From: a virus | Virus record (IMG/VR): IMGVR_UViG_3300045988_121005 | Reading direction: 5' to 3' (one strand) | DNA: 64,000 bases | Shown: one piece after another, positions 2,725 through 54,820 of the stretch | How the letters are laid out: every line of letters begins with the position of its first letter | Position numbering within the stretch: position 1 is the first letter of the stretch | Position numbers and translations under genes: made by a program | The notes under the pieces: generated by a model | Told to the model about the DNA's origin: nothing | Seen by the model: the letters and a program-made list of their open reading frames with translations, nothing else | Databases searched by the model: none

Positions 2725-3030
2725 ATGTGCAATAAAGAAATCGTGATATGCGCTGCCATCTGGGTGCAGGACGGCAAGAAGCGTCCCTATCAGCCCACCA
2801 ATATACCATCCGGAACCGTGTTCTGTGGATTGAGACACCCCTCTATACTATCTCAACTTGCGGCATACGGTATAGCCCATAAAAACCGCAGTGTTCAAGG
2901 ATTTTTGACAAGCAAGAATCGGTTTTTAACAAGAGAGGAAGCGTCTGAACTTGTTAGAAACAATAATCAGGAGATGGTGGTAGATAGGAATGCCATTAGA
3001 GAACAGTTGTATTCAGAAGATTTGTATTAA
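2725..3030 (+). CDS. Hypothetical protein (101 aa).
   Basis: ORF in operon context. Confidence 0.5.
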   Translation: MCNKEIVICAAIWVQDGKKRPYQPTNIPSGTVFCGLRHPSILSQLAAYGIAHKNRSVQGFLTSKNRFLTREEASELVRNNNQEMVVDRNAIREQLYSEDLY

Positions 3031-3047
3031 CTAAAAAATAAAACAAT

Positions 3048-3398
3048 ATGGGATTTATAATCAGAAAGTCAATCATTTATAATATGATGGACGGCAATCA
3101 GTTAGAGTATGAATTTGACAACATAAATTTAGATCATATCACATTTAAAGGTAATGGTAAAGAACCTTTTTCATTTAACAGAGTCCTTGTTGAAAATTTA
3201 ATTGAGACATTTGAGACTATGCAAGATATATACTCTGATAATTACGGAATTAAGGTTTATACCGGTAATTGCATAATTCAACTGAATGTAAATCCAAAGA
3301 ACTTAAGTGAATCCTTTTTTGACGTATATGATAGAGATGGGATGAAATTGATATATAGCATACAAAATAGTATCTTGAAAGAAATGTTTGTCATATGA
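3048..3398 (+). CDS. Hypothetical protein (116 aa).
   Basis: ORF; 4-nt overlap with the next gene. Confidence 0.5.
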   Translation: MGFIIRKSIIYNMMDGNQLEYEFDNINLDHITFKGNGKEPFSFNRVLVENLIETFETMQDIYSDNYGIKVYTGNCIIQLNVNPKNLSESFFDVYDRDGMKLIYSIQNSILKEMFVI

Positions 3399-3712
3399 TT
3401 ACTAAACAAGATATACAAGCAGCAGCATCGTATATTTTCCGAAGCAGTTTTGTCTCGGAGGACCAGGCAAGGAAAGCAATGGTAAAAGCCGGCAATAACG
3501 CTACCAAGATCCTCGTCAAGACCTTTAGAGGCAAGTTGTTCAAGAAAGCTTTTGAAAGAGCCCGTAGAGGAAAGGATATCAGTTCTTTTGAAAGACAGGA
3601 AAAAGAAAGTGGTTTCAATTTTCTACATAATCCTAATAATGGTCGTATGCAAAGCGGTCATATTATAATAGATGGAATTGGTCTGTTTAAACAAATAATT
3701 CATGAAAGGTAA
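3395..3712 (+). CDS. Hypothetical basic protein (105 aa).
   Basis: ORF. Confidence 0.5.
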   Translation: MITKQDIQAAASYIFRSSFVSEDQARKAMVKAGNNATKILVKTFRGKLFKKAFERARRGKDISSFERQEKESGFNFLHNPNNGRMQSGHIIIDGIGLFKQIIHER

Positions 3713-4387: not shown

Positions 4388-7300
4388 ATGGTATCAACGT
4401 GTATTATTAAAAGAGATAATAAAAAGAAAGTTGTTTCTGTCTCTACCAGATCAGGGGACAGGTCTATGTTGTTTGATAAGATAGCATCTATTCCTCTTAT
4501 GGAGAACAGGGAACGGGCTACTACTGTTTTTAAAACCGTATTTTCTAATAAGTTCTTAAAGGATTTTGGCGACTGGAGAAAGAGAGTGCCTATCAACAAA
4601 CCGGCTTATAATAAGGTTAAATCCAACATTGATCTTATTCCGGAAGCTTATAGAGAAAGGGTACTGGATAAGGCTTCTAAGATGAGTAATCCTGTTCTTG
4701 TATCAAAATCAGATGCAACTTATGGGATTCAAGAATCAGGCTTCGGATTCTATAGCCAAGATCTGGGTGATAATATTATGTTGGTGGATGCTATGATCCC
4801 ATCAAGTATTTCCGTACCGGAAGAACCAGGAATAGACGCCGGGCAGTATTTACAAGATGCTATATCTTCGGACTTCACTCCCGTATCTGTGGTACAGGAT
4901 AAGGGTGTTAATTATATGGTTATAAAAGACGGTCTTAAGATATTTAGCCCAGAAGAGCTACCAGAAACAGATTCTAATCCTGTGGGTGTAACGTATCAGA
5001 CTGGAGAGCCTCGTTTGTTTTTCATGAACGATCGTAGTCAATTATTTGAAGATTACGGAGAAGCTCTTCGCTCTGGCGGGAATGATATTAGAATAGGATT
5101 CTTATCAGGAACCGTTCAAGAATCTACCGTGGATGGCGTGGCAGACATTACTTACAAAGCTGGAAAGTATGTTCTTAATAATCCCAAGTCTTTTATACCG
5201 GTCATGACCGCTTCTGCTTCTACTTCTTTATCAACAAAAGGCGGGATAATTAACTACCTTATAAAGAAAGGTCTTTTGTCAGGATCTAAGATATTCGATT
5301 CTGAAACAAGAAGCTATTATCTTACAGGAGAAGGTTATACAGGACAAATTAGACTTTTCAATTCAGCCTTATCATACACCGAGCTCCGTAATCATTTTGG
5401 TTCCGATGTTTCCATGAACGACCAAGGTATGATAACCATAAGCTCGTTGGATAACAGTAAGGTAACTATGAGACTCGCCACCGGAGGAACGGAAAGGGTT
5501 AGTAGGGAACAGATAAAGAACGATCTTAAGTCAGGAAGATACAATGAATTGGACGCCAAGTACGATCATTTTGATGCGCTTGTAGTTTCATTCATATTAG
5601 AAGATAACGATCTTTATGCTGATACTAAAGCTAAGATCGTATCAGATTATAGCAGGCAGGAACGTGACCAACGAAATTCTATTGTCGAGATACTGAAAAC
5701 GCTTGGCGTTAGTGTCATAGGTATGACCGACTATATAGAGAAGTACCAAACCAAATACGGGCACGAACCTTCTGCTAAGGCATTGGCGGATATTGCTAAT
5801 AACGTAATAGCAGTTGGTGAAGATGCTACTTTATCTGATTTAGTAGAAGAAACAGCCCACTTCCTTGTAGAGGCATACAGAGATCAGAATGCTGTTGAGG
5901 CTGTTCTGCAAGATGTGGAAGGTACGGAAGAGTGGAACCAGTATGCAGGTCAGTATTATAATACATACGGTAAGGTATATGAAGGAGCTGAGCTTGATAA
6001 TGCTGTTAGGAGAGAAATTCTTGGAAAGATCCTCGCCAGGGAGATGCAGACCGGCACAGCACAGGCGCCGGTAGAGCCCACCTCCTTCCTGGGGCGCGTC
6101 CGGCGGCTTTTCTCTGGAATAGTAAGCTGGCTTAAATCAGCTTTATCAACCCAAAGACAAGATTTGAATAACGTTATTAAAAACATTCGTGATCTTGCCA
6201 TTACTGACATAGATAAAGGATTTGACACTTCTCTGTTAAAGGATAATGACTTTACATTATACTCCCTTTCTTCTATGAACAAGAACAAGTTTCTTGAGTC
6301 TAAGATCAGATCGCTAAGAAAAACATTAAGAGACTTACGTCAGATAAGCTCTGATAGGGCTGTAACTACGTCTATGACCCTTGCTCAGCTTAAGACCATA
6401 GAAGATAAGATAAATAAAGTAGAGACCGAGATAGACAAGAATGAGATGGCGGCTGCCATGAACAGCATGATCTCCACAGCCGAAGCTCAGGTCAGATACT
6501 TAAGCAATGTGGTGAACACCATCCTTCATGGTGATACCAAAGACGGTAAGCTTCACTTCAATACCAATGATCGAAAGAACGTAGATATTATCAACAATCA
6601 GGTTCTTCCGATCATGAACGATCTTCGAGGATATATCCGTAACAGAAGTACCGAATTTGATGAACGTGAAAAGCAGGATTATACAAATAGGATCAATACC
6701 GTCATTGCCGACATCAATGGTATTCAGTCTGATATTAAATCAGTACAAGACCTTGATGAAAGTACGTTGCTTGATAAGTTAATGAACGAACTTCATGTGC
6801 CGGCAGATAAGGTAAAGAGAGTAAAAGAATTTTTCGACAAGGTTCAACACGATGTTTCTTGGATAAGTAGGTGGTTTGGTATATTAGAGCATTCTTCCAG
6901 TCCGTTCAATAACGCTCTTGGAGCTATGATTGCCAAAGACAATTACAATGCGATGGTGAATGCCCAGCCCGCCATATCCGACTTCCTGGCATATGCTAAA
7001 AAGCATGGTTTTAACAAATCTGAATTTGAAAAACTGCTTCAGAAAGTAGACGGCAAAACTTCTAATTACCTTCGTAGTGCTCTTGATATGGCTAAATACG
7101 ATCGTAATAAGAAGCTGGCGCAGATGCGAGCGTTTGCGACTGCCATGAACATAGAGATATCAGAAGAAGAAATTGGTGATGTGGTTGACAATAACCGTAA
7201 TTACGTATTTAAAAGAGAAGTAGTTGACAAGGATGGAAATACGGTTACTGAAAACGCTAAATTCAAACCATCGTCTGATAGAGTTAATACCGATATTTTT

Positions 7301-10300
7301 ACCATCGAGCAGGAAAAGATTTATACAGAACAGATGGAAAAGTGGGATGCTGAAAATTCGGAACTGGAATTTAGTGAAAGTTATGCCACAAGAATGGAAT
7401 CCATATACAAAAAGGCCGAAGAAGAATTAGGGCATCCGGTTTCTCAAACAACTAAAGAATATCTTAATGCTCTTTCCCGGCAAAAACGGATATTGAGGCA
7501 GCCTTTTATTGATAGCGGTGGTAATTTTGATGAGGTTGCTTACTATAAGAGTAGTAACTACGAAGAAGAAGGACTGCTTCGTAAACAACGTAAGGAAGCA
7601 GCTTCGGAATACATATATGTTGGTACCAGACGTGTTGAAAAAACCGGAGACCAGCTTAAGATGGCTAAAGAAATACAAGCCATAAATGAAGTTTGGAGAA
7701 AAGAATCAAATAATGTCACTAATGCCGTATCAGAATCATTTTTGGAAAGATTGAGAACGATTCAGCGTGAGTCTGGAGGGGAAGCTGCGCTGAAGACGCT
7801 TATGTTGGGGGGTCACCTGTCATTCAACGATCGGTTTTGGAATGATGTAGAATCAGAACAGTCGGCGCGTACCGAATCAAATAACAAGGCTTCATATCTT
7901 AAAATGGCGCATGATATCATTAGTTCTACGACAAGTGATAGAGATGCAACTGACGTGGATTCGATTGTAAAAGATATAGAAAAAAATAAGGCCATTATCA
8001 AGGAAATAATCGGAAACAACCGAGATGTGGCTGATATCGGAGAAATTAATGAAGCGACATTTACCTCATCTGAAAGAGATGCTTTTAGGGCCGCATCTGA
8101 AACTATTGAAGCCGATTACGCTATTTTGATAGATTATGCTAAGATGGTGGGTCTTGAAGATATTGATAAATACCTTACTAAAAGCAGTAAGGCTGAAAAC
8201 GAAGTCAATCAGTCTTATTTAAATGCTCTTGCTGATTCCAAGGAAGTGGAATGGAAGTTTGTGCAACGTCATACTACGGCGAAGAAAGCAAAAAGGATTC
8301 AGGCTTTAAGGGATAAGCTATTTAAGGCTGCTGATAACCGATATCTGTTTACCGTATCTGAAACCAACTACCTGTCAGAAAAGCTTGGAATAAGCAAAGA
8401 ATTAGACGGTAGAGATTTTAAGAATGCTGTCAATGCTAAGATGGCCAGCTTATTTTTAAATAATACAAGGGAAGAGGGTATAGAAGAAGCCAATGCTATT
8501 GTTAATGAATTTGCCAGGAGCCAGGTCTTTTCGTACTATAAACGCATGGCGCCTACCGGATATGCGGCTATGATCGACAAAATAGGTCGAGGTGAGATAG
8601 ATGTGGCGCAGATGGTTAAGGACGTACAGAATGGGACTTCCACACAAGATTATGGTATGGACATATCATACCTGTCTTTCGACCCTGCAAGAGCGTGGGT
8701 GGCTGAATCTGAGGCCGAAAATAGCGGTCGTAACCCTGATTATGTAAAAGATCATGGGTATGGTCATCGTATGCCCAAGAAGAGCCTATATCGTGATGAA
8801 TCGTATTTCAACGACTTCGGCATTAAGTATGATGCTGATGGTAATGAGGTCGCTACTAAAAACGTAGAGCAATGGAATATGATTCAAAAACTCAAGGAAA
8901 TAAAAAGACAATCCCTTGATCTATATAAAGAGCAGAGCCCTAATCTGTATGCTATTCCACAGATATCCAAACAAGATATAGAACGTATAGAAGGGTTAGG
9001 TATCAGCCTTAAAAGTACGGTCAGGAACTTCGTATCCGACTTATGTCTTGACCGCGTAGATGACTCCCTGTATGGTAAAACACGCCAGGGTGAGGTATAT
9101 GATCCGGAAGATAGGGTTCGGTCCATACCTAAATACTACATATATGAATTAGAGAACCAAGATGACGTATCTCACGATTTTGGCTACTCTTATTCGATGC
9201 TTATGATGCAGTCATCGTTATACAACGAAAAGCAGAAGTCTATAGAGCTTGCCCAAGGACTAGAGCAGATGTTACTGAATAAACAATTTGAAGGCGGTAA
9301 GAAGGCTGAAGCAACCCAAGCATATCAGATGTTCAGGGACTTCTTCAACGATCATTATTATGGCATTAGGATGAACACCAAAAAACTGACGGTAAACATC
9401 GGTGGATACACAGTAGACCTTACCAGGATAATGATGGCCGTTGAAAGATTTATGTCGGTCATGAACCTGGCGCTGTCCCCGTTTGTGGCAGCTACCGGCG
9501 CCCTGACAGGTCATATCAACCTCATCATGGAATCTGCCGTAGGACAGTATATAAGCAAAGACTCCCTTAAATACGCATCGGCTGAATTTTCACGCCTTGC
9601 TCCATCTTGTATAGCAGAAACCGGAGACATAGATAGGAAAAGCAAATTATATGTCATAGGTGAGAGAATGGGGATATTCAATATCCGAAATCGTATGTAT
9701 GGTGCCGGATACAATAGAGTGGCCAGGACCTTAATGCGTTCACCTATGTATGCTTTTATGGAAATCCTGAACTACCCTCTTGATCCGCAGGTTATGATTG
9801 CTACTATGGACAATGTTCGTTATTACAAAGGCCGGTTCTACACGTTCCAAGATTTCAAGATGGAAAAAGAACGCAATAAAGAACAGAGTACCATAAAAAG
9901 AGAATGGAATGCATTAAAAGATCGTACTTTATGGAGTATGGTAGATGTCGTGGATGGGAAGGTGGTTGTAAAGCCCGGATCAGGTGTTACTGTTGAGGAA
10001 GTTGAAACCCAGATGGCTATAACCAGGAATCAAGTCCGTAGCTTGTCGCAGATATGTAACGGATCTTTGAATGAAGAAAATCGAACTGCCGCATCGCGCA
10101 ACTGGATAGCCAGGTTCATGACCGCCCACCGAGGATGGTTGGTGCTGGCGGCTCAACGCCTGTGGAAAAGACGTGGCTTCAATTTCCAAACAATGCAAGA
10201 AGAGGAAGGGTTGTCAATTACGTTAAAGAATATGATAGCCAAAACATTTAGCTTAGCTTCCGAGTCTGGTATGAAAAACATCATAGATGCCTGGAACGAA

Positions 10301-10810
10301 AATAAAGATAATATGAATGAGGTAGAGAAAACCAATATAAAACGTCTCAGTGTCTATGCCGGCACGTTCCTTATCATGCAAGCCGTATCCATGCTTCTTG
10401 CCGGATGGCGTGATGATGATGAAAACGAAGAAAGTTGGCTTACTCAATTTGGATCCTATGTCGGATTCAGAACCATAAACGAAATAGCTTCACAGATGCC
10501 GTTTATTATGGAGCTTAACGTGGTAGATATCATTAACGATCCGTTTGTTATGGGGCGAAAACTGAAGGATCTTACCGATCTTAGGAATTATTCACTTGAT
10601 AAAGTAACATCCGGTACATACAAGGGAGAGTCTAAGTTATTTAGGCAACTCGCCAAACAGACGTTTATCAAACAATGGTATAACATCAAGACGCCGGAAG
10701 ACATAGCGCGCGCCTATAATTGGTGGCAGCAGACAAACAACAAGTCAATGATGTTCTTCATCGGCGCCACTCCTGATTCGGAAGGAGACGATGATGTTAG
10801 TTACAAATAG
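4388..10810 (+). CDS. Giant multidomain protein (2140 aa); function unknown.
   Basis: Uninterrupted 6.4-kb ORF with its own promoter-like box and a downstream terminator. It contains long coiled-coil and acidic segments. No catalytic motif was recognised with confidence. Confidence 0.85.
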   Translation: MVSTCIIKRDNKKKVVSVSTRSGDRSMLFDKIASIPLMENRERATTVFKTVFSNKFLKDFGDWRKRVPINKPAYNKVKSNIDLIPEAYRERVLDKASKMSNPVLVSKSDATYGIQESGFGFYSQDLGDNIMLVDAMIPSSISVPEEPGIDAGQYLQDAISSDFTPVSVVQDKGVNYMVIKDGLKIFSPEELPETDSNPVGVTYQTGEPRLFFMNDRSQLFEDYGEALRSGGNDIRIGFLSGTVQESTVDGVADITYKAGKYVLNNPKSFIPVMTASASTSLSTKGGIINYLIKKGLLSGSKIFDSETRSYYLTGEGYTGQIRLFNSALSYTELRNHFGSDVSMNDQGMITISSLDNSKVTMRLATGGTERVSREQIKNDLKSGRYNELDAKYDHFDALVVSFILEDNDLYADTKAKIVSDYSRQERDQRNSIVEILKTLGVSVIGMTDYIEKYQTKYGHEPSAKALADIANNVIAVGEDATLSDLVEETAHFLVEAYRDQNAVEAVLQDVEGTEEWNQYAGQYYNTYGKVYEGAELDNAVRREILGKILAREMQTGTAQAPVEPTSFLGRVRRLFSGIVSWLKSALSTQRQDLNNVIKNIRDLAITDIDKGFDTSLLKDNDFTLYSLSSMNKNKFLESKIRSLRKTLRDLRQISSDRAVTTSMTLAQLKTIEDKINKVETEIDKNEMAAAMNSMISTAEAQVRYLSNVVNTILHGDTKDGKLHFNTNDRKNVDIINNQVLPIMNDLRGYIRNRSTEFDEREKQDYTNRINTVIADINGIQSDIKSVQDLDESTLLDKLMNELHVPADKVKRVKEFFDKVQHDVSWISRWFGILEHSSSPFNNALGAMIAKDNYNAMVNAQPAISDFLAYAKKHGFNKSEFEKLLQKVDGKTSNYLRSALDMAKYDRNKKLAQMRAFATAMNIEISEEEIGDVVDNNRNYVFKREVVDKDGNTVTENAKFKPSSDRVNTDIFTIEQEKIYTEQMEKWDAENSELEFSESYATRMESIYKKAEEELGHPVSQTTKEYLNALSRQKRILRQPFIDSGGNFDEVAYYKSSNYEEEGLLRKQRKEAASEYIYVGTRRVEKTGDQLKMAKEIQAINEVWRKESNNVTNAVSESFLERLRTIQRESGGEAALKTLMLGGHLSFNDRFWNDVESEQSARTESNNKASYLKMAHDIISSTTSDRDATDVDSIVKDIEKNKAIIKEIIGNNRDVADIGEINEATFTSSERDAFRAASETIEADYAILIDYAKMVGLEDIDKYLTKSSKAENEVNQSYLNALADSKEVEWKFVQRHTTAKKAKRIQALRDKLFKAADNRYLFTVSETNYLSEKLGISKELDGRDFKNAVNAKMASLFLNNTREEGIEEANAIVNEFARSQVFSYYKRMAPTGYAAMIDKIGRGEIDVAQMVKDVQNGTSTQDYGMDISYLSFDPARAWVAESEAENSGRNPDYVKDHGYGHRMPKKSLYRDESYFNDFGIKYDADGNEVATKNVEQWNMIQKLKEIKRQSLDLYKEQSPNLYAIPQISKQDIERIEGLGISLKSTVRNFVSDLCLDRVDDSLYGKTRQGEVYDPEDRVRSIPKYYIYELENQDDVSHDFGYSYSMLMMQSSLYNEKQKSIELAQGLEQMLLNKQFEGGKKAEATQAYQMFRDFFNDHYYGIRMNTKKLTVNIGGYTVDLTRIMMAVERFMSVMNLALSPFVAATGALTGHINLIMESAVGQYISKDSLKYASAEFSRLAPSCIAETGDIDRKSKLYVIGERMGIFNIRNRMYGAGYNRVARTLMRSPMYAFMEILNYPLDPQVMIATMDNVRYYKGRFYTFQDFKMEKERNKEQSTIKREWNALKDRTLWSMVDVVDGKVVVKPGSGVTVEEVETQMAITRNQVRSLSQICNGSLNEENRTAASRNWIARFMTAHRGWLVLAAQRLWKRRGFNFQTMQEEEGLSITLKNMIAKTFSLASESGMKNIIDAWNENKDNMNEVEKTNIKRLSVYAGTFLIMQAVSMLLAGWRDDDENEESWLTQFGSYVGFRTINEIASQMPFIMELNVVDIINDPFVMGRKLKDLTDLRNYSLDKVTSGTYKGESKLFRQLAKQTFIKQWYNIKTPEDIARAYNWWQQTNNKSMMFFIGATPDSEGDDDVSYK

Positions 10811-10936: not shown

Positions 10937-11323
10937 TTGTTTTCTTACCGGTTCTCAGTCAGAGATGATAGGGAACCGGTTTTTTTTATGTTGTCAATTA
11001 TTGCTATCTTGCAAACAAAAATCATGAGACGAAGATTTCAAATAGGGATGGGGGTAAATCCCTCGCTTATAATCAATAAAGGCATATACATCCAACATGT
11101 AGATGGAGGATTATATACAAAAGAAAATTGGTCTAATAAAGGATATTCCAATGATCTATGCAATGGAATAGCTCTTGTAGATAAAGTGTGTTTTGTTATA
11201 GCCACCGAATATATTGGCACATTTAGTTGGGGTAAGGATGGAAGAGTAGACAATGTATTTGCACAAACAAGTACAAGGAGTAATCCACGTTATGTCCGCC
11301 CCTTTACCGAATTAATTTTATGA
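10937..11323 (+). CDS. Hypothetical protein; the true start is probably the internal ATG at 11024 (MRRRFQ...).
   Basis: The N-terminal part of the ORF overlaps the terminator. The start context ATGAGACGAAGATTT is nearly identical to that of the next gene. Confidence 0.5.
   Translation: MFSYRFSVRDDREPVFFMLSIIAILQTKIMRRRFQIGMGVNPSLIINKGIYIQHVDGGLYTKENWSNKGYSNDLCNGIALVDKVCFVIATEYIGTFSWGKDGRVDNVFAQTSTRSNPRYVRPFTELIL
10953..10989 (+). terminator. Rho-independent terminator.
   Basis: CCGGUUCUC...GGGAACCGG stem followed by T8. Confidence 0.6.
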
Positions 11324-11327
11324 AATT

Positions 11328-12065
11328 ATGAGAAGAAGATTTGAAAATAATGCTAAACTATATGAGTATAAGATAGTTAGCAATTGTATAGGGGGGGGGG
11401 TAATCGTAGAAAGAAAGAAAGTAGGCACCATTCCACAGGGCGGGCAATTTATCTTTCTGTCTAAAAAAGAACGGCTGGATTCCATAAGTGTCCAAGGCGG
11501 TGTTCCAATGGAAGATAGGCAAGAGATCGATAGTCAGGTTGATACGACAGAGGAATTGCTTGAGCAGGATTCGGTGGTTCTTGCTATTGCTTTAACAACC
11601 TCTCCTTATTATGGATTTAGAGTAAGTGTGATAGCACCTGATGAGTTTACGCTAAGAACAACCAATAGGATTAATAGAACCTTTTTAATAACAAGCTTTA
11701 CTCCACCTGCTGCTATATACGGTGTAAACTTTGGTGATCCTATTGTCCTTAATTATGATAGTTACCAATATAAGATGCCAGATCTTGTAATTGATGGACC
11801 TCATGATAGAATAGTTAGGGCAGATCCTAATCTTACTTGGGGTGTAGGATGTACAGACGCCGACTTTAAACCTTTGCCATATCCAGAATCATGGTATGGC
11901 CAAGGTTTAAATTCTGTGTTCTTATCAGATATGAAACATCTTGCTCCTGGTGATCATCATGTATCATATACAGCTTATATTCATTTGGACTTGATAAATG
12001 ATGGCGGAAGTAAAGTTCATACTGAATATCTGATATTAGAAAAAACACTTAATTTTACGATATGA
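11328..12065 (+). CDS. Hypothetical protein (245 aa) containing a G10 homopolymer.
   Basis: ORF starting MRRRFENN. GGGGGGGGGG at 11391-11400 is in frame (encoding IGGGVIV). Confidence 0.6.
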   Translation: MRRRFENNAKLYEYKIVSNCIGGGVIVERKKVGTIPQGGQFIFLSKKERLDSISVQGGVPMEDRQEIDSQVDTTEELLEQDSVVLAIALTTSPYYGFRVSVIAPDEFTLRTTNRINRTFLITSFTPPAAIYGVNFGDPIVLNYDSYQYKMPDLVIDGPHDRIVRADPNLTWGVGCTDADFKPLPYPESWYGQGLNSVFLSDMKHLAPGDHHVSYTAYIHLDLINDGGSKVHTEYLILEKTLNFTI

Positions 12066-12154
12066 CAACAATCCCCAACCGTACGCCTATTGTATGGTTG
12101 GGGATTGTTGTAGTTACCATCTTTTCTTGTATAAGCAGAACATGAAATAAGTTT

Positions 12155-30139: not shown

Positions 30140-30664
30140 TTATAAAGTTTTCTCATATCTGTCAATTATTTCAATAATTAATCTACCTCTTTCTTTGATC
30201 ATTCCCCTGCTTTCCATATCCAGCACCTTCTTTACCGCATATTTCCACACAAAAGGAAATTCTGTTTCAAGTTTATCAAATTCCATCCGGTCAAGATACA
30301 TGTCGAATACCGTATGCTCCGATTCATGTAGAAAAACTATATTATCTCTGCAAGTGGCAACCGACTTATATATCCTTTTTGGAAGTATGTGACATACGTT
30401 ACATACTGTAGGAAAATGAATAGCCCTACCGGTCATAGACATCCGAATACTATTCAGCTCTTCCAGCATAAGACGAAAAAACCCGGATAAATCCGGGCTC
30501 TCTAACTTTTTCTTCTTGCTGCTGTTTTTAATGGATGTAATTCTGTCTTTTTTTTTCGGAGTCAACTCTTTGCTCCTGCAAGCCTGGCATAAGCCATGAC
30601 TTCTTATCATCACTTTTCGTCCGCATCGTTCGCAGACGTATAGCTTCTTTTCCTTGCTTTCCAT
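30140..30664 (-). CDS. Zinc-finger protein, possibly NinG/Rap-like (tentative).
   Basis: CERCGRKV...CQACR and CNVCHILPKR motifs. Confidence 0.35.
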   Translation of the reverse strand: MESKEKKLYVCERCGRKVMIRSHGLCQACRSKELTPKKKDRITSIKNSSKKKKLESPDLSGFFRLMLEELNSIRMSMTGRAIHFPTVCNVCHILPKRIYKSVATCRDNIVFLHESEHTVFDMYLDRMEFDKLETEFPFVWKYAVKKVLDMESRGMIKERGRLIIEIIDRYEKTL

Positions 30665-47029: not shown

Positions 47030-47721
47030 TGCCCTCCCTCCCCCCCTCTCCAACCCCGGCTAATCCTCCGACTTTCTGCATAGAACCTGCGCTCTCGGCC
47101 TCACTACAGGCATACGGAGAGCGCTACAAGCTTATACTATGGCATGGGATATGGGGTGTTTAGAGATAATATCATTCCATAGAGAGAATAGAGAGCCTTC
47201 AGCCCACGCCCTACCGTCTGCTCCTCCTATCAAGATAGATATTCAAACCTATAATCAAAGCCAAAAACAAAAAGCAAAAGACCATTACAACATTATACTG
47301 ATCCGCTCCGTACTCCAACATAGAACGAATACCAACCGACAGAAAATAAAGATCAGCGACTAATAAAAACCACCACATAAAACAAAAAATTTACAATAAG
47401 TATGTCCGAAAATACGGGTATTATAAAACATAACTAATTGATAATCAGACATACCTTATTTTTAAGAAAAATACAATAAGCCTAATTTTCAATCCATAGA
47501 GACGAAAAAGGCGGCATCCGGCACCATATTTTGGGTCAGAAAACCGCCTACAGTTTCGTTTTAGACCAATTTTAACGACAATATATAGACAAAATACCGG
47601 CATTATATCCAAACAGCCTTATTTTTGTTTCGATTTGAACCAATATACGCATTCCTACCTTGTTTGTCGTCGTGTTCACTCTCAGAATATCTTACCCTTA
47701 AATAGAAAGAGTAGGATACGA

Positions 47722-48746: not shown

Positions 48747-49349
48747 TTACTGCTGGTTGCTTTCATGTGCGAGGTATTCACTTACACACTTTGCCACAGT
48801 GCGAATAGAATAAGATTTGATCTTAACAGCCACATAAGTAGATTTGTACTCGTCGGTTTCTTTTATCAACCATTTAGTACTTTTTTTGGTCTCCAATGAT
48901 TCGGCAGTAGTAAAACCAAATGCTTTATATTCGCTACCGTAAACCACATTCTCGGCGCACCAATCAGCCGTTTTGGCTTCAATTCCTTTTTCTTTGTCTG
49001 CATTGGTATCTTTATACACTTTAGAGTATAAAGTAAACTTAACAAAAGTATTATCCACTTTAGGTAACATCTGACTACATACTGCCACCAGATTTTTTTT
49101 ATCTTTGGCGATGGCTGCTACCTTTACGGCGTATTCTGCCGGTATTTCCAAAGCCTTGCAAATAGCCTTAAGATCAGCTCCATTAGCAAATAGAGCGTTG
49201 TACAGTTTAACAGCACCTACCAAATTTGCAGCATTTTCTTTAATAACAGCATTCTGTAGTTTGTTTACATTTTTTTTCGTAATCATATCCAATATATTTT
49301 TAATTGTTAAACAAATGATATTCAATTTAATGACCCACAACGCAGGCAA
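48747..49349 (-). CDS. Hypothetical Lys/Ala-rich protein; the start is probably the internal MITKKN.
   Basis: ORF with a hairpin (GGAGAGC...GCTCTCC) just downstream of its stop. Confidence 0.5.
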   Translation of the reverse strand: MPALWVIKLNIICLTIKNILDMITKKNVNKLQNAVIKENAANLVGAVKLYNALFANGADLKAICKALEIPAEYAVKVAAIAKDKKNLVAVCSQMLPKVDNTFVKFTLYSKVYKDTNADKEKGIEAKTADWCAENVVYGSEYKAFGFTTAESLETKKSTKWLIKETDEYKSTYVAVKIKSYSIRTVAKCVSEYLAHESNQQ

Positions 49350-49735: not shown

Positions 49736-49773
49736 CGGGGGCGGGAGGTTCGTGATAGGTACCCCCTCTCTCC

Positions 49774-49956
49774 CATCACATAAACATCTTTCATATCCCT
49801 CATCACATAAACATCTTTCATATCCCTCATCACATAAACATCTTTCATATCCCTCATCACATAAACATCTTTCTCATATCCCTCATCACATAAACATCTT
49901 TCTCATATCTCTCCCATCACATAAACATCTTTCATATCCCTCATCACATAAAAGTA
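49774..49956. repeat. Tandem direct repeat of about 27 bp (CATCACATAAACATCTTTCATATCCCT), roughly 6.5 copies. Iteron-like.
   Basis: Seen directly. Units are near-identical; some carry a 1-nt insertion. Confidence 0.85.
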
Positions 49957-50001
49957 TGGGGAACCTATCCAAAGTTCCCCATACTTATTTTACGACGGTA
50001 A

Positions 50002-54458: not shown

Positions 54459-54530
54459 GAGGCTTGTGGCGGAATCGAACCGCCCTACGAGGTTTTGCGG
54501 ACCCCTGACTAAACCACTCATCCAACAAGC
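54459..54530 (-). tRNA. tRNA-Cys(GCA): tRNA-Cys (GCA).
   Basis: 72 nt. Acceptor GGCUUGU/ACAAGCC, T-arm GGCGG-UUCGAUU-CCGCC, anticodon loop CCGCAAA. Confidence 0.7.
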
Positions 54531-54533
54531 CAT

Positions 54534-54607
54534 GTAGCCCAACCGGGAGTCGAACCCGGAACTAAAGTTTAGGAAACTTTTGTTATATCCGTTTAACTAC
54601 CAGGCTA
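54534..54607 (-). tRNA. tRNA-Arg(CCT): tRNA-Arg (CCT).
   Basis: T-arm CCGGG-UUCGACU-CCCGG. Anticodon stem AAAGU/ACUUU with loop UUCCUAA. The acceptor stem contains several G-U pairs. Confidence 0.6.
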
Positions 54608-54674
54608 TTTAATGTTTGCTATGTTCACACACCGCAAACACTGAGATAATTAACATTTCCACAAAAACTTATCG

Positions 54675-54745
54675 TTATCCAAGGAGGATTCGAACCTCCG
54701 ATAACAGAACCAAAATCTGTTGTGTTACCACTACACCATTGGACA
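54675..54745 (-). tRNA. tRNA-Gln(TTG): tRNA-Gln (TTG).
   Basis: D-arm GUGU/ACAC, anticodon stem ACAGA/UCUGU with loop UUUUGGU, T-arm GGAGG-UUCGAAU-CCUCC. Confidence 0.75.
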
Positions 54746-54746
54746 G

Positions 54747-54820
54747 TGGTCCCGGAGGGATTTGAACCCACGATCTTGCGGTTATGAGCCGCCTGCTTTC
54801 ACCACTAAGCTACAGGACCT
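54747..54820 (-). tRNA. tRNA-Met(CAT): tRNA-Met (CAT).
   Basis: Acceptor GGUCCUG/CGGGACC, D-arm GCUU/AAGC, anticodon loop CUCAUAA, T-loop UUCAAAU. Confidence 0.75.

Follow-up and report, generated by a model that had tools for sequence, protein, structure and literature searches.

The 64,000-nucleotide stretch of viral DNA analyzed here (IMG/VR record IMGVR_UViG_3300045988_121005, hereafter the window) contains an open reading frame (ORF) for a 245-amino-acid (aa) protein, ORF B, with a run of ten G's (G10) close to its 5' end. We interpret this tract as a slipped-strand, hypermutable contingency switch located 5' in the coding sequence of a crAss-like phage accessory gene, a reading to which we assign a probability of about 0.78. 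The tract lies in the coding region of an N-terminal leader beginning with MRRRF, which ORF B has in common with the gene preceding it (ORF A) and with genes encoding several unrelated proteins in related phages.

The homopolymer (GGGGGGGGGG) occupies exactly positions 11391-11400 and codons 22-25 of ORF B, where it is read as ATA GGG GGG GGG GTA (I-G-G-G-V, codons 21-25) in an ATG-started frame extending from 11328 to 12065. Coordinates and translation thus agree with an original prediction, made from the sequence, of a G10 run located in frame early in a 245-aa ORF. The run had also been called extreme for AT-rich DNA, which is borne out by an expectation of only 0.0006 (independent, identically distributed bases) to 0.0025 (first-order Markov model) runs of at least ten G's in 64 kb; the guanine-plus-cytosine (GC) content of the window is 37.7%, with G accounting for 15.9% of the bases on the plus strand. 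G10 is the sole G or C run longer than 7 nucleotides (nt) in the window, the runner-up G run being a G6 and the longest C run a C7. The latter, at 47040-47046 in apparently non-coding sequence, is the only other G/C homopolymer of at least 7 nt. With ten G's within an ORF, the tract exceeds the minimum of 7-8 G/C nucleotides for a slippable repeat of a simple-sequence-repeat (SSR) contingency locus.

Changes in tract length toggle the reading frame and leave the remainder of the gene intact. G10 maintains the 245-aa frame, loss of one G (G9) creates GGG GGG GGG TAA and a 24-aa peptide, and gain of one G (G11) or loss of two (G8) results in a 44-aa product. The predicted truncation after approximately 25 aa by a slip of one nucleotide in either direction therefore holds for the loss, but not for the gain. 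No alternative-frame product, as had been considered, is encoded, since the other frames stop after 0 or approximately 20 codons. The G(n)-TAA arrangement recurs in ORF A and in the paralogues of L083, a contig from another crAss-like lineage.

Tract lengths were compared among consensus assemblies, with each European Nucleotide Archive (ENA) metagenome contig originating from a different assembly. Lengths of G6, G8, G9, G10 and G12, as well as interrupted forms, occur among about 100 related contigs of gut phages. Among 80 viral contigs in IMG/VR, alleles with the flanks of the window comprise 23 copies of G10, 23 of G9, eight of G8 and one of G6, and substitution-interrupted tracts are present as GGGGGTGGGG, GGGGGGAGGG, G7AGG and G8AGG. 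An independent scan of ENA metaSPAdes contigs identified G8 (four contigs), G9 (seven), G10 (four), G12 (one), G7AGG (two) and G9AGG (one), and the Logan assemblies contain G12 on one contig of the window's own allele type. Length heterogeneity in other isolates, which the original prediction had named as a check, is thus found in three collections. In a second allele type, with TGT after the tract, the gene is in frame (ON) at G9. Among the 62 alleles of common body length, 36 are out of frame (OFF) and 26 are ON. Tract length differs between nearest-neighbor genomes in 43 of 74 cases, and L005 (G10) and L037 (G9) diverge by 0.28% over 5136 aligned columns (approximately 5.1 kb). This scatter over the phylogeny implies many independent events.

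Interrupted tracts totaling 10 nt are all in frame ('locked ON'), with the third glycine replaced by E, R or D, a free replacement which indicates that this residue is not needed for folding. ORF B homologs in protein databases are mostly 245 aa long, with some of 221-227 aa that start with 'MYRGG(G)V...'. The latter are gene-caller rescues from a TTG codon in another frame and imply that the genomes concerned carry an out-of-frame tract. Annotations of this family should be read with caution, as OFF alleles are called either as such truncated proteins or not at all.

Repeat-number polymorphism of the G tract is above that of control repeats, which are short (A6 and G6). Three A6 tracts at the same loci are invariant (73/73, 67/67 and 72/72), as is a G6 at position 7807 in the upstream structural gene (25/25). 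A search with a T8 at 49093, considered as a further homopolymer control, gave no relatives. A T9 at 30548-30556, inside a 174-aa minus-strand ORF, was rejected as a control because the same nine bases read T6CTT (TTTTTTCTT) in 89 of 91 related contigs, and is thus a long coding homopolymer newly created in the window genome.

ORF B OFF alleles are not decaying. The frame remains intact over at least 219 codons downstream of the tract in 77 of 77 loci, with no other frameshifts, and nonsense changes number 0 among at least 226 substitutions versus 9.7 expected (P about 6e-5). The ratio of nonsynonymous to synonymous substitution rates (dN/dS) is 0.64 overall, and OFF-OFF pairs do not exceed ON-ON pairs. 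Furthermore, TGTATA-G10 is kept in orthologs with 55% (L086, L087) and 40% (L085) amino-acid identity, and a 20%-identical relative (L084) carries G9. GGG is the rarest glycine codon (13.8%), and the chance of three consecutive GGG codons is 0.0027. The retention of pure G9 or G10 tracts in distant orthologs and their recurrence on paralogs point to selection maintaining the repeat, as in SSR contingency loci.

Taken together, the polymorphism, the predominance of OFF alleles, the differences between nearest neighbors and the intactness of OFF alleles provide strong comparative support for the slipped-strand phase-variation switch that had been predicted. We propose that the phage replicase slips on the G run during replication, whereby G's would be gained or lost. 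G10 would keep the 245-aa frame (ON), whereas G9, which places the adjacent TAA in frame, and G8 or G11 would terminate translation after 24 and 44 aa, respectively (OFF). As the slips would be reversible and the rest of the gene remains intact, mixed ON/OFF phage populations could arise, and substitutions within the tract would lock a lineage in the ON state. Switching may be fast and reversible within one population, and variable ORF B expression could hedge against the phase-variable surfaces of Bacteroidales.

Several observations weigh against this interpretation. The evidence stems from consensus assemblies, so that within-sample heterogeneity and reversibility are putative, and these phages offer no long poly-G control in an essential gene, so that single contigs may contain a platform- or assembler-related poly-G miscall. 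There is no enrichment of ON lengths (approximately 42% ON), which also fits a dispensable gene, the dN/dS value is high, and csAssE-Sib, the only deposited relative, has no tract at all at this locus. In addition, the locus as a whole is under weak constraint, since ORF A decays through many deletions and frameshifts. The excess of OFF over ON alleles, the true decay of the adjoining ORF A and the dN/dS value would all be compatible with a non-adaptive hotspot, where ORF B is dispensable, the G run persists only because it encodes a Gly-Gly-Gly turn, and frameshifts are neutral or slightly deleterious variants in transit; Gly-Gly is indeed conserved in distant relatives via other codons (GGT GGT GAT in L086, GGTGGGGGT in L083). 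However, glycine does not require the rarest of its codons, yet pure G9-G10 tracts persist at 20-55% amino-acid identity, and the third glycine is not structurally required, as evident from its replacement in locked-ON alleles. Moreover, the tract recurs on unrelated paralogs, and OFF alleles carry no second lesion in the form of nonsense changes or other frameshifts. We therefore consider such a hotspot unlikely.

Even less probable is that transcriptional slippage or ribosomal frameshifting restores the frame at the RNA level, in which case the tract would tune expression instead of switching the gene at the DNA level, and OFF genomes would still yield some protein. Polymerases are known to stutter on long homopolymers, and the fact that G9 is as common as G10 would be tolerable if G9 still gave a product. 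Yet DNA length variation alone suffices for ON/OFF switching, the TAA follows immediately after the tract in G9 alleles, and no stimulatory RNA structure was detected near the tract (fold z = +0.35), so that a programmed-frameshift stimulator at this site was dismissed. Recoding would nevertheless be compatible with DNA-level switching as an add-on. The least probable alternative is that the real tract is fixed and its variation reflects Illumina or assembler poly-G errors. Errors are common in runs of 9-12 nt, the coverage of some contigs is low (1-3x), and a matched long poly-G control is lacking, the T9 candidate having been lost to the interrupted T6CTT. Against this stand differing consensus lengths in high-coverage ENA contigs (G10 at 36x, G9 at 39x and G9AGG at 150x), the existence of differences of two nucleotides and of substitution-interrupted variants, and polymorphism across MEGAHIT, metaSPAdes and Logan assemblies. 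Furthermore, the exact window allele (G10) is found on seven contigs, and the short G5/G6 run of ORF A varies too, although short runs are not error-prone. We thus favor the contingency switch.

As stated in the original prediction, the adjoining genes begin with near-identical sequences encoding MRRRF: the start of ORF A (11024-11323), ATGAGACGAAGATTT, and that of ORF B (from 11328), ATGAGAAGAAGATTT, are identical in 14 of 15 bases. This 15-mer pair is not statistically remarkable within the window, as 12 of 100 shuffles give at least two matches at no more than two mismatches; the reality of the shared start is instead supported by its position at the start codons of adjacent genes and by its conservation in relatives. 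The prediction had offered duplication or a shared targeting signal as explanations. Sharing of the leader is upheld, but a whole-gene duplication was rejected, since BLASTP detected no homology between ORF A and ORF B beyond MRRRF (E = 0.12). The leader may be a targeting or docking signal. However, an interpretation of MRRRF as a Sec or Tat signal peptide or as a lipobox was discarded, as there is no hydrophobic core and residues 6-20 of ORF B (ENNAKLYEYKIVSNC) are, by inspection, not hydrophobic. In the structural model described below, residues 12-17 form the first beta-strand of the folded domain, and the same motif is internal in P0211.

The leader M-RRF...I-G-G-G-V, including the tract, also heads at least four further protein bodies that are unrelated, and all genes of the array following the upstream 2140-aa gene, which belong to at least four unrelated families, have an MRRR[FY] start. 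Distant relatives retain the leader peptide, either encoded by different codons or lengthened by one or two residues (MRRS, MIRRF, MAVRRF), which indicates that the conserved element is the peptide 'RRF' and not the DNA. Since leader and tract are attached to several unrelated bodies, several of these genes could switch independently. L083 encodes three tandem paralogs (M[IA][IV]RRFYN...CN-GGG) with bodies ending in ...SEVxxVGD and tracts of G9, G9 and G10, as well as a divergently oriented MRRRFYNS gene with G11. Four of the five leader-bearing copies of L083 are OFF, and the single copy with an interrupted tract is ON. The same contig carries a gene for an IS605 OrfB/Cas12f-like TnpB at 5244-6383.

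A 371-aa gene with the start MRRRFFNKIGGG (MRRRFFNK) is located elsewhere in the same phage genomes (L206-L250; e.g., on the minus strand of L217, 329-1444 after reverse complementation) and was not detected in the window by tblastn. Its tract ranges from G9 to G11 and is OFF in 21 of 25 loci, a ratio biased by the requirement of at least 9 G's in the scan. The body of this protein matches phrog_5302 'tail protein' (E = 2.8e-32) and PDB entry 5vf4 (E = 6.5e-5). csAssE-Sib encodes a 192-aa protein with an MRRRY start and an ORF B-like N-domain motif (L082, 22030-22608), directly after another giant structural gene. As no G/C run of at least 7 nt is present in the 42-kb stretch of csAssE-Sib that was examined, this isolate appears to be without tracts.

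The leader also acts as a recombination site, as junctions coincide either with the tract motif or with the MRRRF start, both of which are shared. L041 (approximately 3001-3693) and L047 are chimeras of the ORF A leader and the ORF B body with their junction precisely at the tract, and in P0216 ORF A was lost via a join at the two MRRRF starts. Furthermore, P0171, P0191 and P0186 are ORF A/ORF B fusions, and L027 is without ORF A, with ORF B located directly behind the terminator. In csAssE-Sib, ORF A is 205 aa long, and an unrelated, tract-free body of 149 aa replaces ORF B directly after a conserved MRRRFEN, which identifies the locus as a cassette site.

The tract of ORF A is a pure G10 in one relative (L081) and otherwise consists of GGGAT followed by a second G run of G4 (two loci), G5 (60), G6 (nine), G8 (three) or G9 (two). 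Public assemblies contain at least ten further ORF A alleles with internal deletions (93-163 aa), the breakpoints of which differ and all of which keep the N- and C-termini. Frameshift alleles occur at a T8 tract (T7 in nine, T8 in 56 and T9 in eight cases) and also at the short G run. ORF A thus clearly shows real decay, unlike the OFF alleles of ORF B. Features of the locus are compiled in Table 1.

Table 1. Sequence features of the ORF A/ORF B locus (window coordinates) and the leader-bearing paralogs of L083.
Feature	Position	Strand	Remarks
Intrinsic-terminator-like hairpin, followed by T8	10947-10987	+	RNA fold -19.6 kcal/mol, z = -4.3
TATCTTGC, candidate Bacteroides-type -7 promoter element	11005-11012	+	Approximately 12 nt 5' of ORF A start; 7 of 8 consensus positions
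ORF A, 99 aa (MRRRFQIGMGV...YVRPFTELIL)	11024-11323	+	Allele of a 205-aa gene with an in-frame internal deletion of 318 bp
MRRRF-coding start of ORF A, ATGAGACGAAGATTT	11024-11038	+	Read from sequence
Interrupted tract motif in ORF A, ATA-GGGATGGGGG-TAA	11042-11057	+	Overlooked in the original prediction
Junction of the 318-bp in-frame deletion in ORF A (approximate)	11262-11275	+	ACAA microhomology; versus full-length ORF A of L089 and L001
ORF B, 245 aa, orphan all-beta protein	11328-12065	+	ATG-started ORF, 4 nt after ORF A stop
MRRRF-coding start of ORF B, ATGAGAAGAAGATTT	11328-11342	+	Read from sequence
G10 homopolymer, putative hypermutable switch	11391-11400	+	ON length for the allele type of the window
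TAA directly 3' of the tract	11401-11403	+	In frame after G9; terminates at codon 25
Hairpin with 21-bp perfect stem, between ORF B and the convergent minus-strand replication block	12065-12111		RNA fold -35.1 kcal/mol, z = -8.5
Leader-bearing paralogs of L083	3235-3975, 6500-8333, 4001-4750	-, -, +	L083 coordinates

With ORF B starting 4 nt past the stop codon of ORF A, the two genes make up a small, self-contained unit that ends the structural module. The upstream 2140-aa gene (4388-10810) matches phrog_37651 'virion structural protein' (E = 5e-79). A simple terminator scan returned nothing, but explicit folding revealed hairpins on both sides of the unit. None of 200 shuffled sequences folds as stably as the upstream hairpin, which is kept in csAssE-Sib and in IMG/VR relatives; it is terminator-like and would end the 2140-aa gene and isolate the ORF A/ORF B unit. 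The downstream hairpin, also present in csAssE-Sib, is probably a bidirectional terminator. The consensus of the Bacteroides-type -7 promoter element is TAnnTTTG. The TATCTTGC motif 5' of ORF A is possibly such an element: a perfect TATCTTTG is found at an equal distance 5' of each tandem paralog of L083, and TATCTTGC precedes ORF B in L027, where ORF A is absent.

The AlphaFold2 model of ORF B, obtained with an alignment of 21 sequences, is all-beta (predicted local distance difference test score, pLDDT, 91.9; predicted template modeling score, pTM, 0.63). Residues 1-6 (MRRRFE) are disordered, followed by a small N-terminal sandwich (residues 12-56) and long strands, and the GGG codons of the tract encode the turn that links the first strand to the second. 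The family is small: among 1.84 billion cluster representatives, only 32 were retrieved at E ≤ 0.001. Pfam and PHROG searches with ORF B and its 21 aligned relatives gave no match, and a profile search against PDB sequences returned nothing below E = 0.1. Comparison of the fold retrieved generic beta-sandwich matches only, so that the tail-fiber or receptor-binding relationship that the original prediction had named as a check was not confirmed for ORF B itself. Resemblances of the N-domain to a PEGA domain and of ORF A to Lcl_C/DUF1566 (E = 0.81 for the latter) are impressions that we treat as leads, not as claims. The variable residues of ORF B are dispersed, at diversifying surface positions. 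A role as target of a diversity-generating retroelement (DGR), considered for variable residues immediately 3' of the tract, was rejected, as the 64-kb window contains no template repeat for ORF B and the variation forms no A-biased block, and no flanking inverted repeats were found at ORF B. Based on its location at the end of the structural module, the non-enzymatic beta-sandwich fold, the diversifying surface positions and the tail-protein-like sister gene, ORF B might be a virion-associated protein for host interaction, binding or adhesion, an assignment that we make tentatively and hold slightly less probable than its opposite.

The source of the window is a crAss-like phage of the human gut (Crassvirales, 'epsilon'-type) with a genome of approximately 147 kb. 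Over 4738 bp, the window shares an identical sequence with contig k115_46247 (146,618 bp) of ENA assembly ERZ27229446. Its only relative in the phage database searched is csAssE-Sib (OR575929, 151 kb, human gut), with 97% identical flanks, which is annotated with a crAss-type muzzle protein. L083 carries Pfam CrAss_Ring_2 and a weak match to CrAss_Ring_1. Hallmark virion genes of the Crassvirales are thus represented by the muzzle protein of csAssE-Sib, the ring genes of L083 and the phrog_37651 match. Hallmark genes were not found inside the window, because the rest of it is a replication module. All ORF B family members with examined genomic context are located on contigs of crAss-like gut phages.

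The convergent replication block past ORF B encodes helicases, a PD-(D/E)XK nuclease, DnaB, a primase-like protein, a sliding clamp and PIF1. It also encodes a 566-aa protein (20532-22229, minus strand) with SPFH/Band_7 (E = 2.5e-25) and Flotillin (E = 1.4e-9) domains, an unusual cargo for a phage. Furthermore, a 27-31-nt unit (TCCCTCATCACATAAACATCTTTCATA) is repeated in tandem approximately seven times at 49769-49960, which could be an iteron- or origin-like array, and a cluster of four tRNAs (Cys-GCA, Arg-CCT, Gln-TTG and Met-CAT) was identified on the minus strand at 54459-54819.

Crass-like gut phages are very abundant and persist for years beside hosts with phase-variable capsules. Host-side phase variation of surface capsules has been shown for crAss001 (PMC8375218), and a phage-encoded contingency switch would supply the missing phage half of this arms race. 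It would suggest that crAss-like gut phages keep mixed populations, as phase-variable bacteria do. More speculatively, and with somewhat less confidence than in the binding role of ORF B, we hypothesize that Crassvirales encode sets of several modular host-interaction proteins, each phase-variable independently of the others, in which the poly-G leader is joined to interchangeable binding domains and doubles as a handle for recombination, the latter suggested by the chimeras L041 and L047 and the deletion allele P0216. If this were true, the accessory tail or adhesion proteins displayed by each virion population would form a changing combination. Such an opa-like strategy on the side of the phage would counter capsule phase variation in Bacteroidales and could help to explain the long-term coexistence of crAss-like phages and their hosts.

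Bacterial contingency families with the repeat in a 5' leader include the opa genes of Neisseria, with CTCTT repeats in the signal-peptide region, and the poly-G genes of Campylobacter. The phage genes resemble the opa-type arrangement in forming a paralog family with a conserved, repeat-bearing 5' leader, in their putatively independent switching and in the OFF state of most copies (4/5 in L083). They differ in being viral, in having a leader that is not a signal peptide (no hydrophobic core) and in the unrelated folds of their bodies. Other phages switch tropism by means of DGRs (BPP-1, Hankyphage) or invertible tail-fiber segments (Mu Gin, P1 Cin). These systems likewise generate heterogeneity of host-interaction proteins within a phage population, whereas the locus described here has no template/variable repeat pair, no A-biased block and no flanking inverted repeats.

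Simple-sequence repeats within ORFs, with reversible slippage frameshifts read as bet-hedging, have been described for T2/T4 and other phages in a preprint that covers coliphages, ICP1/ICP2 and the BASEL collection (Gomez, Barrick & Waters 2025, PMC12633550); a term search of its text gave no mention of crAss or Bacteroides. Compared with the T2/T4-type loci as presented there, the tract of ORF B is a long poly-G in AT-rich DNA and is OFF in approximately 50% of cases across metagenomes. A literature search, which most subscription papers lay outside, found no report on poly-G, homopolymer or contingency loci in Crassvirales, crAss-like phages or csAssE-Sib, and the combination of a leader module with a paralog array is possibly new.

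The closest parallel is offered by the Campylobacter Fletchervirus phages, in which G7-G11 tracts in receptor-binding-protein genes are a source of phenotypic diversity (Sorensen et al. 2021, Cell Rep 35:109214, as summarized in PMC12633550 and PMC10877375). Both cases concern lytic phages with intragenic G7-G11 tracts, frame-shifting length changes and, putatively for ORF B, mixed populations, with several tract genes per genome and with hosts whose surface receptors are phase variable. They differ in phage order (Crassvirales versus myoviruses) and in host phylum (Bacteroidota, as inferred here, versus Campylobacter), and in that the tract described here lies in a conserved N-terminal leader common to unrelated bodies. 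Moreover, the ORF B locus is known from sequence, with a putative receptor-binding role. The ORF B family shows no sequence homology to Fletchervirus proteins, as it is restricted to the 32 representatives, and csAssE-Sib is the only relative in the phage database. By analogy, the ORF B switch would thus work like the Fletchervirus system without being homologous to it.

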